This document shows positions 621 to 12,776 of a DNA stretch of 24,000 nucleotides, piece by piece. This stretch comes from Lacticaseibacillus baoqingensis. GTDB lineage: Bacteria; Bacillota; Bacilli; Lactobacillales; Lactobacillaceae. The position numbers were made by a program, and so were the translations under genes. Location of the stretch: contig NZ_RHOI01000036.1 of NCBI RefSeq assembly GCF_003946165.1, positions 2,212 through 26,211 of the forward strand, given 5' to 3'. Every line of letters begins with the position of its first letter. Within the stretch, counting starts at the first letter, position 1. The notes under the pieces were generated by a model, which saw only the letters and a list, made by a program, of their open reading frames with translations, ran no database searches and had not been told where the DNA came from.

Positions 621-1103
621 TTAAACCAGTGCCCGTTTGACACCGCGCTTGTCGAAGTCGCGTTGATAATTGCACATTGCGGTATAGATCTTCGCTGCTT
701 CTTCATTATTGCCGCGCAATTCGAACAAGCCGATCACCGGCGAATTAAAGCGGCGCGCGTAATGCTTGGCCGTTAAACCAAATTGAGCGTTGAAGTTGCG
801 GTTGCCGCTGCCGATGATGCCCAGCAAGTTATCGGTATTGCCGGCTTGCAGCTCATCGCGAAAGTCTAAAGTCATGACTTCCTTATAGCCGTTGTTGATC
901 CCATCCCCGCCATCAAGGTAAGTCGGTACCATCGCAAAAAATGGTTTGTCCATGATGCTGGTATCGACAGTTTCACTATATTCTACGGCATGCAACTGCG
1001 GGTTGGCAGGATCTAAAGCGTGCTGCTTGTCCGCGTATGCCCCCAGGCGCTTCGCAAAAGCCCGTGTATTACCGGAAATCGAAACGTAAAAAAGATTCAG
1101 CAT
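621..1103 (-). CDS. nrdI: NrdI, flavodoxin-like flavoprotein of class Ib ribonucleotide reductase
   Basis: 160 aa ORF with N-terminus MLNLFYVSISGNTRAFAKRL (the NrdI-type SxxGNT FMN loop). Start overlaps the nrdF stop in a TAATG junction. Confidence 0.9.
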   Translation of the reverse strand: MLNLFYVSISGNTRAFAKRLGAYADKQHALDPANPQLHAVEYSETVDTSIMDKPFFAMVPTYLDGGDGINNGYKEVMTLDFRDELQAGNTDNLLGIIGSGNRNFNAQFGLTAKHYARRFNSPVIGLFELRGNNEEAAKIYTAMCNYQRDFDKRGVKRALV

Positions 1104-2089
1104 TACTTATCGCCTGCTTCCGGATCCGAGATCACGTCGATATTGTAATCATCATCATTCATCGCTTCAACTTGGCCCAGTAAGTAACCATTGCCGACTT
1201 GTGAGAAGAAATCATGGTTAGATGTCGTCGTGTTGATCCCGTTCATGATGATCGGGTTCACATCGCTAGCCGTGGTTGGGAACATGCTTTCTTTGCCTAA
1301 GTTCATCAAAGCCTTGTTGGCATTGTATTCAACGAAAGTCATCACTTGCTTGGTCCAGCCCACTTGGTCATAGCACAACGCCGCATACTTTTCTTCATTC
1401 GCGTAAAGCTTATATAACAAGTCATAAGCCCAATCATCTTGTTTTTGCTTTTCAGCATCAGACAGCTGATTGTAGGCGATTTGATACTTATAGCCGATAT
1501 AGGTGCCATGCACCGATTCGTCCCGCAAGATCAACTTGATGATCTCAGCTACATTGTTCAGCTTATTGTTGCCCAGATAATAAAGCGGTGTGTAGAACCC
1601 AGAATAAAACAGGCAGGTTTCCAGGAACACGTTAGCAACTTTTTTGTGCAACGGATCCGGATCATTGCGGTAAAGATCAACGATCCACTTGGCTTTATTT
1701 TGTAAAAACTCTTCAGAATCGGACCATTGGAAGATCTCATCGATTTCGGCTTGGGTGTTCAACGTCGAGAAAATGGTGGAATATGACTTGGCGTGAACAG
1801 ATTCCATGAATTGGATGTTGTTCAAAACCGCTTTTTCATGCGGTGTAATGGCACCAGTTGTCAAAGCCCGCATCCCATCTTGGCTTTGCACAGTATCCAA
1901 TAAGGTCAAACCGCCAAAAACGTGACCGACGACCCATTGGTGGGTGCTGTCGAGTTCCCGCCAGTCGTCCATGTCGTTGGAAACCGGGATCCGCGTATCC
2001 AACCAGAATTGTTCGGTAAGTTTTTCCCATGTCGCCTTGTCGACGGCGTCTGAGACGCGGTCCCAGTTAATCGCCTGATAATTTTCCAT
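1103..2089 (-). CDS. nrdF: Class Ib ribonucleoside-diphosphate reductase beta subunit NrdF
   Basis: 328 aa ORF with R2-type metal and radical motifs (ESVHAKSYS, RDESVHGTY, FYSGF). Acidic C-terminal tail. Translationally coupled to nrdI. Confidence 0.95.
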   Translation of the reverse strand: MENYQAINWDRVSDAVDKATWEKLTEQFWLDTRIPVSNDMDDWRELDSTHQWVVGHVFGGLTLLDTVQSQDGMRALTTGAITPHEKAVLNNIQFMESVHAKSYSTIFSTLNTQAEIDEIFQWSDSEEFLQNKAKWIVDLYRNDPDPLHKKVANVFLETCLFYSGFYTPLYYLGNNKLNNVAEIIKLILRDESVHGTYIGYKYQIAYNQLSDAEKQKQDDWAYDLLYKLYANEEKYAALCYDQVGWTKQVMTFVEYNANKALMNLGKESMFPTTASDVNPIIMNGINTTTSNHDFFSQVGNGYLLGQVEAMNDDDYNIDVISDPEAGDK

Positions 2090-2172
2090 AATGTGATGTG
2101 CTTCCTTTCGTCGGGGGTGTTAAAATATCACTTGCGCGCCTAATCTTACCACAGGTTGCCAATCCCGCCTAA

Positions 2173-2188
2173 TCGCAAGATGTTGCAC
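2173..2188. promoter_or_regulatory. Degenerate NrdR-like box (distal)
   Basis: TCGCAAGATGTTGCAC; the core CAAGATGTTG matches 8 of 10 positions of the CwAtATaTwG core. Its centre is 31 bp from the stronger box, the spacing typical of tandem NrdR boxes. Confidence 0.35.
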
Positions 2189-2193
2189 GTGAG

Positions 2194-2222
2194 TTGACCA
2201 TAGACACAATATACAGTATCAT
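2194..2222 (+). promoter_or_regulatory. Candidate sigma-A promoter of nrdE
   Basis: TTGACC (2194-2199), 17 nt spacer, TATCAT (2217-2222). The NrdR box sits in the spacer. Predicts a ~195 nt leader. Confidence 0.5.
2204..2219. promoter_or_regulatory. NrdR box
   Basis: ACACAATATACAGTAT matches 14 of 16 positions of the remembered NrdR consensus acaCwAtATaTwGtgt. Located in the nrdE / nrdF-nrdI divergent region and overlaps both predicted promoters. Confidence 0.6.
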
Positions 2223-2236
2223 ACACTTATTCTCAA
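2208..2236 (-). promoter_or_regulatory. Candidate sigma-A promoter of nrdF-nrdI
   Basis: On the minus strand: TTGAGA (2236-2231), 17 nt spacer, TATATT (2213-2208). The -10 lies inside the NrdR box. Confidence 0.45.
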
Positions 2237-2248
2237 ACACTTACTAAA

Positions 2249-2367
2249 ACACAGAGCGCAGCAAGCCGCACTTAGGCCTGTGGGTAAGGCGGCTTGGGTG
2301 CGGTGCAGTATGCACCGTGACCGAGACGACTTACCTGCAATGCCGTTGTGGTGCGCAACTCGACTAT
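2249..2367 (+). repeat. Long-hairpin intergenic repeat, copy D (in the nrdE 5' leader)
   Basis: Shares ACAGAGCGCAGCAAG..GCACTTAG..TGTGGGTAAGGC.GC.TGGGTGCG and the ..GCGCAACTCGAC end with the copies at 4591-4911. Folds as GTGGGTAAG / CTTACCTGC around an apical CGGTGCA-GTA-TGCACCG hairpin. Confidence 0.75.
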
Positions 2368-2422
2368 AAAACCCCGAGCAAAACCGCGTTTTTCGGTAAC
2401 ACTCGACAAAAGGAGTAACGTC

Positions 2423-4594
2423 ATGGGCCTCAAGTCTATTGATCCAGAACAAGTCACCTACTTCAAACTCAATAATGAAATCAACATCCCCGTCAACGGC
2501 CAGATCCCGCTTAACAAGGATAAAGAAGCATTGGCTGCATTTTTCAAAGAAAATGTTGAGCCGAACACCAAAAAATTTGCCAGCCTCAAAGAACGGCTCG
2601 CTTTTTTGGTGGACAATAATTATTATGAAGCCGCATTTTTAAGCAAGTACACCCCAGAATTCTTACAAAAGCTGACCGACTACCTAGCCGCCCAAGACTT
2701 CCAGTTCCAGTCATTCATGGCCGCTTACAAGTTTTATGCCCAATACGCGTTGAAGACTGACGATAACGAAGAATACCTCGAATCCTTCCCAGATCGGGTC
2801 TTTGCTAACGCATTATTCTTCGCAGATGGCAATGAAGAATTAGCCCTGCGCTTAGCCGACGAAATGATCCATCAACGCTATCAGCCGGCTACCCCATCAT
2901 TTCTCAATGCTGGGCGCGCGCGCCGCGGCGAATTAGTGTCTTGTTTCTTGTTGCAAGTGACTGATGACATGAACGCGATCGGCCGCGCGGTGAACTCTGC
3001 TTTAGAGCTTTCGCGGATCGGCGGCGGCGTGGGGATCACCTTGTCTAATTTGCGTGAAGGCGGCGCTCCGATCAAAGGGATCGAAGGCGCAGCCAGCGGC
3101 GTTTTGCCCGTCATGAAGCTGCTTGAAGATTCTTTTTCTTACTCCAACCAACTGGGCCAGCGGCAAGGGGCCGGCGTCGTTTACTTGAACGTCTTCCATC
3201 CTGATATTATCGCCTTTTTAGGCGCTAAAAAGGAAAATGCCGATGAAAAGTATCGGTTGAAGACCTTAAGCCTCGGCGTGATCGTTCCTGATAAGTATTA
3301 TGACTTGGTGAAAAATGATGAGGACATGTACCTCTTTTCACCATATTCCGTTGAACGCGAATACGGCCAGCCATTTTCTTACATCGACATCACCAAGGAA
3401 TACGACAACATGGTCGCTAACCCGAACATCACCAAGAAAAAGATCCGGGCGCGGGATCTGGAAACCGAGATCTCTAAGCTCCAACAAGAATCCGGCTATC
3501 CTTACATTTTAAATATTGATACCGCCAACAACGCCAGCCCGATCGCCGGCAAGATCATCATGTCCAACTTGTGCTCCGAGATCTTGCAAGTGCAAACCCC
3601 ATCGACTTTGAACAACCGCCAAGAATATGACGTCATGGGCACAGATGTTTCTTGCAACCTCGGCTCGACCAACATCCCGAACTTGATGAAGAGTCAAGAC
3701 TTCGAAAAGTCTGTCGATGCAATGGTGCGGGCATTGACCTATGTCACCGACCATTCTGAGATCGACGTGGTCCCATCTGTGCAACACGGCAACGATCTGG
3801 CCCACTCCATCGGTTTAGGGGCGATGGGCTTGCATACCTATTTTGCCAAGCATCACATGCACTATGGTTCGCCTGAATCGTTGGACTTCACCAACCAATA
3901 CTTCTTGCTGCTTAACTACTACACCTTGAAGGCCTCCAACAAGATCGCACGCGAACGCAAGCAAGTCTTCCACAATTTCGAAGCTTCCAAGTACGCAGAT
4001 GGCAGTTACTTTGACAAGTATCTTCAAGGCGATTGGGGCATCAAATACGATACGGTGAAGGCACAATTTGCCGGCATCCACATCCCGACCAAAGCCGACT
4101 GGGAACAGTTGAAAGCCGATGTGATGAAAGATGGGCTTTACCACCAAAACCGCATGGCCGTAGCCCCAAACGGCTCTATTTCCTACATTAACGACACCTC
4201 TTCTTCCTTACATCCGATCGTGAACCGGATCGAAGACCGTCAAGAAAAAACGATCGGGACGATCTACTACCCAGCTTCCGGTTTGGCTAACGACACCTTG
4301 CCATACTATCAAAGTGCCTATGACACCAACATGACCAAGGTCATCGACGTCTATGCCGCTGCGCAACAGCACGTCGATCAAGGGATGGCGATGACGCTCT
4401 TCATGCGTTCCACGATCCCGGCAGGACTTTATCCATGGAAAGAAGGCCGCACCGACAAGATGACCACGCGTGATCTCAACATCTTGCGCAACTATGCCCA
4501 CGCTAAAGGCATCAAGTCGATCTACTATATCCGGACCTTCACCGACGACGAAGACGAAATCGGCGCCAATGCCTGCGAGAGCTGCTCAATCTAA
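2423..4594 (+). CDS. nrdE: Class Ib ribonucleoside-diphosphate reductase alpha subunit NrdE
   Basis: The listed ORF runs 2348-4594. The ATG at 2423 follows AAAGGAG at 7 nt spacing and gives MGLKSIDPEQVTYFKLNNEINIP, an NrdE-type N-terminus. Contains the active-site NLCSEI motif and a C-terminal CESC redox pair. Confidence 0.95.
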   Translation: MGLKSIDPEQVTYFKLNNEINIPVNGQIPLNKDKEALAAFFKENVEPNTKKFASLKERLAFLVDNNYYEAAFLSKYTPEFLQKLTDYLAAQDFQFQSFMAAYKFYAQYALKTDDNEEYLESFPDRVFANALFFADGNEELALRLADEMIHQRYQPATPSFLNAGRARRGELVSCFLLQVTDDMNAIGRAVNSALELSRIGGGVGITLSNLREGGAPIKGIEGAASGVLPVMKLLEDSFSYSNQLGQRQGAGVVYLNVFHPDIIAFLGAKKENADEKYRLKTLSLGVIVPDKYYDLVKNDEDMYLFSPYSVEREYGQPFSYIDITKEYDNMVANPNITKKKIRARDLETEISKLQQESGYPYILNIDTANNASPIAGKIIMSNLCSEILQVQTPSTLNNRQEYDVMGTDVSCNLGSTNIPNLMKSQDFEKSVDAMVRALTYVTDHSEIDVVPSVQHGNDLAHSIGLGAMGLHTYFAKHHMHYGSPESLDFTNQYFLLLNYYTLKASNKIARERKQVFHNFEASKYADGSYFDKYLQGDWGIKYDTVKAQFAGIHIPTKADWEQLKADVMKDGLYHQNRMAVAPNGSISYINDTSSSLHPIVNRIEDRQEKTIGTIYYPASGLANDTLPYYQSAYDTNMTKVIDVYAAAQQHVDQGMAMTLFMRSTIPAGLYPWKEGRTDKMTTRDLNILRNYAHAKGIKSIYYIRTFTDDEDEIGANACESCSI

Positions 4595-4712
4595 CCAGAG
4601 CGAAGCAAAGCGGTTATAGGAGTGTGGGTAAGGCAGCGTGATGCGTTATGGCGTCAGCCATAGCGTGGCGCGATGACTTATCCGCGACCCCGTTGCTTTG
4701 CGCAGCTCGACG
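4591..4712 (+). repeat. Long-hairpin repeat, tandem copy A (122 nt)
   Basis: Begins at the nrdE stop codon (cTAAccagagcg). Near-identical to copy B. Long imperfect hairpin with apical CGTTATGGC-GTCA-GCCATAGCG. Confidence 0.85.
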
Positions 4713-4833
4713 CTAACCAGAGCGAAGCAAAGCGGTTTTAGGGGTGTGGGTAAGGCAGCGTGATGCGTTATGGCGTCAGCCATAGCGTGGCGCGATGACT
4801 TACCCGCGACCCCGTGCTTTGCGCAGCTCGACG
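4713..4833 (+). repeat. Long-hairpin repeat, tandem copy B (121 nt)
   Basis: Direct head-to-tail repeat of copy A, differing by a few substitutions and one indel (ttatagga/ttttaggg, cttatcc/cttaccc, ccgttgc/ccgtgc). Confidence 0.85.
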
Positions 4834-4911
4834 AGACCAGAGCGAAGCAAGGACGCACTTAGCGATGTGGGTAAGGCAGCCTGGGTGCGTCGCGGCACGC
4901 AGCTCGACGAT
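4834..4911 (+). repeat. Long-hairpin repeat, short variant copy C (~78 nt)
   Basis: Has the same ends (GACCAGAGCGAAGCAAG... and ...GCAGCTCGACGAT). Its interior resembles copy D (GCACTTAG, TGTGGGTAAGGCAGCCTGGGTGCG) but lacks the CTTACCC arm. Confidence 0.7.
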
Positions 4912-4912
4912 A

Positions 4913-4967
4913 GCAAAATAAAACCACTAGGAGCGTCCAAAAACGCCGCCTAGTGGTTTTATTTTGC
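4913..4967 (+). terminator. nrdE terminator hairpin
   Basis: Perfect 17 bp stem AAAATAAAACCACTAGG / CCTAGTGGTTTTATTTT. The T-rich 3' arm is followed by GCTTTC. Confidence 0.7.
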
Positions 4968-4992
4968 TTTCAGGCAGTTTCTCCCACCCATC

Positions 4993-5022
4993 AAAAAAAG
5001 CCGCATGCTCGCGGCTTTTTTT
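4993..5022 (-). terminator. Terminator of the PNPOx-family gene
   Basis: AAAAAAAGCCGC-ATGCTC-GCGGCTTTTTTT. On the minus strand the stem is followed by a U-run. Confidence 0.65.
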
Positions 5023-5075
5023 GTCATAATTGAATGATCCCGATCGGTTCTGTGACATGGTAGGGCAGTACCAGA

Positions 5076-5441
5076 TCAGATCTTTTGTTGAACATCATCG
5101 ATGGTGACGATTAACATCCGCGTCAGCCAAGGAAATTCGGCCTGCTTTTGGTCAAAAGCAGCGCCGTGGTCGACGAATTCGCCAGTTCCATGCACATGGA
5201 AGCCGGCACCAGGGCCGACGGTGCCTTCGACGGCTTTAGAGCCGAAGGTCAGCGTGAGATGATTATCCTGTGGAAAGTCTGCTTCAATGCTATGCATCCC
5301 GGCAGCCGGGATCAATAATTGGTTCTCTTTCAGCGTAATGTACGACATCCACGTATTGACCACATGGGCCGGGTGCGCGTTGATCGTAATGATCGTGACC
5401 GGACCTTCATGCTGCAACACTTCTAAAAATTTCGGATTCAT
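5076..5441 (-). CDS. Pyridoxamine 5'-phosphate oxidase-family FMN-binding (split-barrel) protein
   Basis: 121 aa ORF. AAGGAGG RBS 7 nt before the ATG. Size and sequence pattern (HEGPVTIITI..., IPAAGMHSIEADF) fit small PNPOx-like proteins. Confidence 0.7.
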   Translation of the reverse strand: MNPKFLEVLQHEGPVTIITINAHPAHVVNTWMSYITLKENQLLIPAAGMHSIEADFPQDNHLTLTFGSKAVEGTVGPGAGFHVHGTGEFVDHGAAFDQKQAEFPWLTRMLIVTIDDVQQKI

Positions 5442-12137: not shown

Positions 12138-12608
12138 ATGGACCAATATAAGATCTACTACAATACAATGCCGATCGACGATGACGGGTTGGGTTTCGTT
12201 GTCGGTTTGATCACGGAATTACCCCCTAGCCGCTTACATGTTAAGGGCCGCAGTCGCAATCTGCTGGCTTACATGCCGGTTTTACGCATGGGCCAGCCGG
12301 CTTATCCAGTACTCAATGAAAAACTGCACGTGATCACCCGCAAAGCATGGGAAGCTGCCCCTGATGACGCTGCGTTTTTAGTCACGGATTGGTTTTTACG
12401 CTACCCGATGATCGATTCGCTGACCTATTTTGACACTTATGACCCCTTCCACAACTTGACACCGCACATCTTGCCAGGCGACCGTTGGCGCCGCCCGATC
12501 CAACTTGCCAAGCAACAGCTCCATGATGACCTTGAGCGCTTCACCAAAGGCCAGCCTACTAAGTTGATGCAATTACCGGTAAAACTAGAAGATCTCGGGT
12601 ATTTTTAG
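12138..12608 (+). CDS. Hypothetical protein (156 aa), family not recognised
   Basis: ORF with GGAGGA RBS 8 nt before the ATG. Followed by a strong hairpin. Confidence 0.6.
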   Translation: MDQYKIYYNTMPIDDDGLGFVVGLITELPPSRLHVKGRSRNLLAYMPVLRMGQPAYPVLNEKLHVITRKAWEAAPDDAAFLVTDWFLRYPMIDSLTYFDTYDPFHNLTPHILPGDRWRRPIQLAKQQLHDDLERFTKGQPTKLMQLPVKLEDLGYF

Positions 12609-12641
12609 AGGCTGAGCCCCAAAGCGGTTTTAGCCCATGAT

Positions 12642-12695
12642 AAAAGCGCCTTGAAACCGCGATTCTAACACGAATCGTGGCCCCAAGGCGCTTTT
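12642..12695. terminator. Bidirectional terminator hairpin between convergent genes
   Basis: AAAAGCGCCTTG...(inner CGATTC-TAACAC-GAATCG)...CCAAGGCGCTTTT. Confidence 0.65.
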
Positions 12696-12776
12696 GTCGC
12701 TGGGCGCGGCTTGTTAGGGCGCACCTAGACGATGATGTCCTAGTCACGTTTGTGTTAGCAAGTAATTTGCTGTGCT

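Follow-up and report, generated by a model that had tools for sequence, protein, structure and literature searches.

The window analysed here is a stretch of 24,000 nt from Lacticaseibacillus baoqingensis, whose genome assembly comprises 2.86 Mb in 82 contigs, with 50.9% G+C. We focused on nrdE and on the spacer that separates it from the divergently oriented nrdF and nrdI, where a repeat unit lies in the nrdE leader. The relevant features are the following, given in window coordinates.

621-1103, minus strand: nrdI, divergent from nrdE
1103-2089, minus strand: nrdF, divergent from nrdE
2194-2222, plus strand: promoter-like site for nrdE, TTGACC-17-TATCAT, upstream of the insertion
2204-2219, palindrome, no strand assigned: NrdR-box-like palindrome ACACAATATACAGTAT, within the promoter spacer
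2208-2236, minus strand: promoter-like site for the divergent nrdF-nrdI, TTGAGA-17-TATATT, overlapping the NrdR box
2245-2247, plus strand: TAA, 4 bases upstream of the leader unit, not a gene's stop codon
2248-2368 (core 2252-2364), plus strand: full repeat unit of the 113-nt short-apex subfamily, a long hairpin with a decayed basal stem
2365-2407, plus strand: stub, an internally deleted second unit of 43 nt that ends in CTCGAC and abuts the RBS
2410-2425, plus strand: RBS AAGGAG and nrdE start codon, the start being conserved in relatives
2423-4594, plus strand: nrdE, class Ib ribonucleotide reductase large subunit (Pfam RNR_N, Ribonuc_red_lgN, Ribonuc_red_lgC)
4596-4901, plus strand: three-unit array beginning 1 nt past the nrdE stop, with two full units and one internally deleted unit

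Only two promoter-like sites were found between positions 2000 and 5100, namely, the one for nrdE at 2194-2222 on the plus strand and the one for nrdF-nrdI at 2208-2236 on the minus strand. Both hexamers of the nrdE site are kept in 10 of the 10 aligned species, and the sister genome described below has this site as well. The NrdR-like box has two mismatches to the box pattern, is the sole such site in the window, and is conserved in relatives; the genome also contains an nrdR gene. A TCTCAA block after the -10 is likewise conserved in the seven closest species. The repeat element lies downstream of this conserved nrdE promoter, immediately outside the -35 of the nrdF-nrdI site, and upstream of the RBS, in agreement with an earlier sequence-only reading that had placed it between a promoter with an NrdR box and the RBS.

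That reading had described a 119-nt member of a repeat family in the nrdE leader. A covariance model of the family (R1, built from alignment A2 of 40 full units) found this member at 2248-2368 on the plus strand with 105.5 bits and an E value of 2e-29, and nhmmer gave a core of 2252-2364. The inserted DNA is longer than the 119 nt described, amounting to ∼161 nt, since the 43-nt stub had been missed. The ends and the stem that had been reported are present: the unit carries CAGAGCG at 2252-2258 and CTCGAC at 2359-2364, and its minimum-energy fold contains the GTGGGTAAG/CTTACCTGC stem together with the apical hairpin CGGTGCA-GTA-TGCACCG. Compared with the conserved ends of the family, the 5′ CAGAGCG is exact, while the 3′ end reads CAACTCGAC where the family has CAGCTCGAC, a single change that breaks one terminal pair. 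The RNA of the plus strand folds with -56.5 kcal/mol (z -3.7) versus -43.4 kcal/mol (z -1.2) for the minus strand, and the unit forms 34 of the 39 pairs of the family consensus, with 5 wobbles, consistent with the G-U pairing on one strand only that had been noted earlier.

The repeat family to which this unit belongs is abundant in the genome, where iterated nhmmer searches detected 106 units of ∼115 nt in 48 arrays. Most arrays are arranged head to tail with a period near 121 nt, and the units, 113 to 117 nt long, keep one orientation within each array. Two subfamilies can be distinguished: the main one, which includes the leader copy, starts with CAGAGCG and ends with CAGCTCGAC, and the second one ends with GCGCGTT. 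Several of the contigs C35, C40, C44, C47, C49, and C27 begin or end inside repeat arrays, suggesting that the family breaks short-read assembly and that the 106 units are a lower bound. A weak, diverged match (30 bits, E value of 8.6e-7) lies elsewhere in the window, at 12602-12734 on the plus strand between two convergent genes; it agrees with a diverged fifth member that the sequence-only reading had recorded separately. Across the genus, 33 of 37 Lacticaseibacillus genomes contain family matches, with counts per genome from 0 to at least 95. The family is rare outside Lacticaseibacillus, where 7 genomes in 3 of the 41 other genera sampled gave weak matches, one or two each. Rfam returned nothing relevant at the gathering score for the whole window or at E values up to 10 for positions 2050 to 5100, and our literature searches retrieved no paper on Lactobacillaceae that describes the family.

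The consensus hairpin of the 40 aligned units has 39 pairs, with 95.3% of the alignment cells paired. Changes on both sides occur at 30 of these pairs, and none of 500 shuffles reached the observed value; this agrees with the earlier view that structure is kept while sequence varies. When the 3′ partners were slid by 1 to 3 columns, 29 to 48% of the cells stayed paired. Five of the pairs are retained as wobbles, G-U or U-G, in all or most of the units (for instance, all 40 at columns 21/107), and the reverse strands of neighbouring units score about 17 to 23 bits with model R1. The covariation, the fixed wobbles, and the strand-biased scores together indicate that the fold is real, conserved, and specific to one strand. 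The family-wide conservation of structure and wobbles further implies that the fold matters to something, be it the host or the element. The outermost pairing consists of only 3 bp (AGC/GCT), the whole unit forming an imperfect palindrome, and the unpaired motifs CAGAGC, TTAGG, GTTG, and GCTCGAC are nearly invariant across units.

Within this family, the leader unit is somewhat degenerate. Its apex had been taken for a swapped hairpin; the hairpin is there as described, but rather than a private replacement it is the short apex typical of the 113-nt subfamily, which occurs in 10 of the 40 aligned units. Relative to the nearest paralogues, the closing pair of the apex has changed from G-C to A-U, on both sides, along with one loop base, and the G-U intermediate of this change is present in one paralogue. 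Five of the 39 consensus pairs are broken in the leader unit, against a family median of 1. Helices 1 and 2, at the base, have lost 4 of their 11 pairs, and helices 3 and 4 are intact but for one pair; the base of the hairpin is restored in the minimum-energy fold solely through a shifted, G-U-rich pairing. The arms of the unit are of different types: GCAAGCCG on the 5′ side and, on the 3′ side, TGCGGTGCG, which is the normal partner of GCACCGCG. Given these mismatched arm types and the excess of broken pairs, the leader unit looks like a recombinant, the remnant of a deletion between two different units.

We then considered where the arrays lie in the genome. On a rough dicodon-scored gene set, on which all our context counts rest, 17 main-type arrays begin no more than 8 nt past the stop codon of a same-strand gene. 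At two further arrays (C18:26812 and C23:92774), the frame of the upstream gene runs 24 nt into the first unit, where the repeat appears to supply the gene's last codons and its stop codon. The leader unit is unlike such typical array starts, as no gene ends at the TAA 4 nt upstream of it; the open frame that ends there has only 24 codons and begins inside the -35 box. Its placement within a divergent spacer is also unusual. Main-subfamily arrays in co-directional contexts lie mostly on the sense strand of transcripts (15 sense versus 5 antisense). One array of six units (C10:15547-16240, locus L031) is located between a 745-codon gene and a 147-codon gene, a relA-dtd-like pair in which the product of the second gene begins like Dtd (D-aminoacyl-tRNA deacylase); it starts 1 nt past the first stop and ends 40 nt before the next start. 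As this array lies within an operon, ∼700 nt of hairpins must be transcribed there. Another array, of 2 units, ends 30 nt upstream of a start codon. With arrays inside operons and no room for promoters, read-through of the hairpins must be common.

Array orientation was not biased relative to local GC skew (27 with, 21 against), and we therefore rejected a replication-linked orientation of the kind seen for single-strand transposases. The genome's sole Y1_Tnp gene has a long ORF alongside, as an IS200/IS605-type unit, and no family repeats lie beside it, so that a link between the repeats and this Y1 transposase was rejected as well. One reverse-transcriptase-like gene was located in the genome. 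A MITE would be expected to have terminal inverted repeats, a target-site duplication, and a related autonomous IS; we did not identify a parent IS for the repeat family. The nearly invariant unpaired motifs, the fixed wobble positions, and the consistent position just past stop codons would also be seen if the units were binding sites for a shared protein acting on RNA or DNA, in which case the nrdE copies would put the gene under that factor. We consider this quite unlikely, given that copy numbers vary within a single genus from none in some species to more than 90 in others, which fits an expanding element better, that no candidate protein emerged, and that the only Y1 transposase gene stands without adjacent repeats.

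Arrays of the second subfamily showed a feature of their own. At six loci they are preceded by a conserved segment of ∼370 nt that is 93 to 95% identical between copies and contains no long ORF (C12:90750-91127, C23:120914-121285, C27:29046-29416, C18:18149-18521, C45:95806-96174, and C56:77204-77569; locus L153 shows one of them). The segment has a promoter-like sequence, TTTACA-17-TATCTT, and a terminator-like hairpin directly before the first unit, and it gave no Rfam match. It may represent either a multicopy gene for a noncoding RNA or the main part of a composite element.

The sequence-only reading had proposed a comparison of the nrdE locus among relatives, and this comparison was informative about the history of the leader copy. 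The spacer between nrdF and nrdE measures 333 nt here versus 171 to 172 nt in six related species (G006, G001, G010, G013, G007, and G018), which retain the same -35 TTGACC, the NrdR-like box, and the -10 TATCAT. Their empty site is clean: ∼161 nt are missing between ACTTAC(T) and the RBS, a block that corresponds to one full unit plus the 43-nt stub. Outside this species and its sister lineage, none of the sampled loci had a family copy between nrdF and nrdE. Judged by these alignments, the leader copy was inserted downstream of the conserved promoter and before the RBS, in this species and its sister lineage only. The earlier reading had held that a random insertion with no conserved structure would speak against its proposal; the related genomes do show an insertion, but the structure is conserved throughout the family. 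A possible AAAA duplication at the leader site is indistinguishable from an A-rich linker, and a 32-nt word from the left flank matched no contig in a metagenome scan.

The sister lineage is represented by the metagenome-assembled genome UW_DM_LACCAS3_1 (G050, locus L064), whose NrdE is 95% identical. Its nrdE leader contains five units and the same stub, at the same site and with the same 5′ junction. The stub, which retains the start of a unit and the CTCGAC end, is homologous between the two genomes and is not present in the empty sites of the relatives. Although the two genomes share 92.6% identity in the promoter flank, the leader unit is only 62 to 68% identical to any of the five sister units. 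The sister array contains two pairs of similar units, 2 and 5 (99% alike) and 1 and 4 (87%). The combination of a shared site, stub, and junction with divergent units suggests that the site was occupied before the lineages split and that the array has since been rebuilt, probably by duplication, deletion, and exchange of units. In the next species out, G006 (NrdE 92% identical), both sides of nrdE are empty, yet many copies occur elsewhere in the genome. A second empty site, obtained by comparing G006 with contig C14 of the present genome, has approximate boundaries, and its flanks past the stop codon do not align.

A different arrangement was seen in an uncultured Lacticaseibacillus genome assembled from the Hadza metagenome data set. 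Here, a diverged family unit (L066:1349-1490, 33 bits) sits in antisense between nrdH and the nrdE RBS, and the beginning of another unit comes after it, directly adjacent to this RBS. This independent antisense unit implies that the region upstream of nrdE has been hit at least twice in the genus.

What the insertion does to nrdE was addressed by inspecting the leader for known types of control. There is no U run after the hairpin, past position 2364, and the terminator scan made no call on the plus strand of the leader; since, in addition, arrays of this family lie inside operons, we rejected an intrinsic terminator or attenuator. No promoter-like site was found in or after the leader array, either here or in the sister genome. 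The structure of the RBS region is not significant (z 0.03), nor is any masking of the RBS by the stub, and the hairpin of the unit is retained when the predicted leader is folded as a whole. A cis-regulatory leader RNA or riboswitch of nrdE was rejected too, as the element is absent from the six nearest sampled species and from the other nrdF-nrdE spacers outside the sister lineage, and has no Rfam match.

These results leave RNA-level tuning to be weighed, in which the leader hairpin would be kept because it stabilises the 5′ end or is processed by an RNase that is either specific for double strands or dependent on the 5′ end, and the length of the array would set the level of nrdE. The retention of the array in two species, the strand-specific fold with its G-U pairs on the mRNA strand, and the sense-strand excess of co-directional arrays would all be in line with such a role. 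However, the sequence of the units has not been conserved at the locus as that of the flank has, the copy number is 1 in one species and 5 in the other, the basal stem is decayed, and six related species with the same promoter do without the insert. Moreover, at least ∼24 nt separate the predicted 5′ end from the start of the hairpin, which is far for 5′-end protection by the standard of Bacillus 5′ stabilisers. Tuning is, in our estimate, possible but unlikely. In our reading, the leader carries one unit and a stub of a dispersed genus repeat, inserted ancestrally. Because its sequence is not conserved at the locus, its copy number varies, its base is decayed, and six species live without it, we regard this insert as most likely a tolerated passenger. 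Some observations point the other way. The array has been retained in both insertion-bearing species, and selection could be behind this; the independent antisense unit before the nrdE RBS of a third species hints at a hotspot or a benefit. The leader unit may have a modest effect on mRNA stability or processing.

Downstream of nrdE, the two full units at 4596-4832 are 97% alike and resemble units on contigs C18, C14, C21, C33, and C10 at 88 to 92%. There are three post-nrdE units in this genome versus one in the sister genome. The third, internally deleted unit and the single 3′ unit of the sister share one type of short apex, and we take these two to be orthologous; new units seem to have been added at the stop-codon side of the array. 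The gene is thus bracketed in the same orientation by the leader unit on its 5′ side and the three units at 4596-4901 on its 3′ side, as the sequence-only reading had observed.

From this bracketing the same reading had derived long-range interactions between the two ends and recombination across nrdE. If the 5′ and 3′ copies acted jointly, they would either pair the ends of the nrdE mRNA or serve as direct repeats for excision or amplification of the gene, and the fact that they flank nrdE in one orientation, both in this genome and in its sister, would be in line with this. Neither route found support. Cofolding of the leader unit with the 3′ units yields a gain of just 1.7 to 4.5 kcal/mol over the separate hairpins. 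The longest identical word between the 5′ and 3′ elements is 12 nt, at an overall identity of ∼70%, and 12 nt of identity is too short for efficient homologous recombination, given minimal homology lengths. Nor is the element specific to nrdE, as the 48 arrays of the genome show: chance alone would give 0.74 genes with an array on either side in this genome (P = 0.17), so that the two-sided flanking of nrdE requires no special explanation. We therefore regard joint action as very improbable.

The family shares features with several known classes of interspersed repeats. The pneumococcal BOX, RUP, and SPRITE elements are described by Croucher et al. (2011, PMC3049150) as interspersed repeats that are judged mainly parasitic and are cotranscribed with neighbouring genes, and one BOX element is described there inside a leader with T-box riboswitches. 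They resemble the present family in being small structured repeats that lie between genes in a Lactobacillales genome, number about a hundred copies, and are limited to a narrow group of species. They differ in architecture, BOX being composed of boxA-boxB-boxC modules, while the Lacticaseibacillus family is a single module of ∼115 nt repeated head to tail; its arrays also often start no more than 8 nt from a stop codon, unlike BOX, RUP, and SPRITE. The ERIC/IRU elements of enterobacteria and the Correia elements of Neisseria, like the present family, are imperfect palindromes of 100 to 150 nt in transcribed intergenic DNA that form long RNA hairpins, and such hairpins can alter mRNA stability. 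Those elements are mostly single, with clear terminal inverted repeats and a duplicated TA target, whereas the Lacticaseibacillus units form tandem arrays, pair at their ends over only 3 bp, and show no clear duplication of a target.

REP sequences and BIMEs are likewise extragenic palindromes that cluster after gene ends, and a protection of mRNA has been proposed for them. Their units measure 20 to 40 nt, alternate in orientation, and are linked to a RAYT gene; with units of 113 to 117 nt arranged head to tail, and no RAYT found, we rejected an assignment to this class. Integron attC sites, such as the Vibrio cholerae repeats, are imperfect dyads of ∼120 nt that act in a strand-specific manner and lie right after a stop codon, so that they resemble the present family in length, in conserved structure with variable sequence, in strand specificity, and in position. 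The present arrays differ from them in having no cassette ORFs between units, in being scattered over the genome, and in showing no core-site pattern. It is thus the single module, the stop-codon position, and the strand-specific wobbles that set the Lacticaseibacillus family apart from BOX, RUP, SPRITE, ERIC, Correia, and REP.

A bolder reading of the same features would make the family a new small mobile element that inserts in one orientation 3′ of TAA through a folded, strand-specific intermediate and grows in tandem, with array length in the nrdE 5′ untranslated region acting as an evolvable dial of expression. Insertion directly 3′ of TAA would place the element mostly at stop codons. 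If this were true, a change in array length, from 1 unit here to 5 in the sister genome, would dial a tightly regulated gene, but we think the proposal as a whole unlikely.

Returning to the tolerated passenger, the following course of events best explains our observations. Before this species and its sister diverged, their ancestor would have acquired, in its short nrdE leader, an array of a dispersed, tandemly amplifying, strand-specific hairpin repeat of ∼115 nt, ∼16 nt past the expected transcription start and immediately before the RBS. Duplication, deletion, and unit exchange would then have altered it, leaving one recombinant unit and the deleted stub here and five units in the sister. 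The unit would be transcribed from the conserved, putatively NrdR-controlled promoter and would lengthen the 5′ untranslated region from ∼32 nt to ∼193 nt, if the start is placed ∼7 nt past the -10 as the conserved consensus match suggests. The predicted hairpin would fold on itself, neither terminating transcription nor covering the RBS, and its effect on nrdE would be at most an altered stability or processing of the mRNA; a dedicated regulatory or bracketing device would not be involved.

For nrdE itself this outcome is deflationary, as the hairpin would not be a new control element of ribonucleotide reductase. The leader copy is a further member of the repeat family, now with a documented insertion origin, and the locus gives two clean empty-site comparisons for a family that unites strand-specific structure, stop-codon adjacency, and tandem growth. 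With none, one, or five units around one conserved NrdR-controlled promoter, the locus amounts to a natural experiment, and its three states would make it possible to test directly the effect of long structured repeats on a bacterial 5′ untranslated region.
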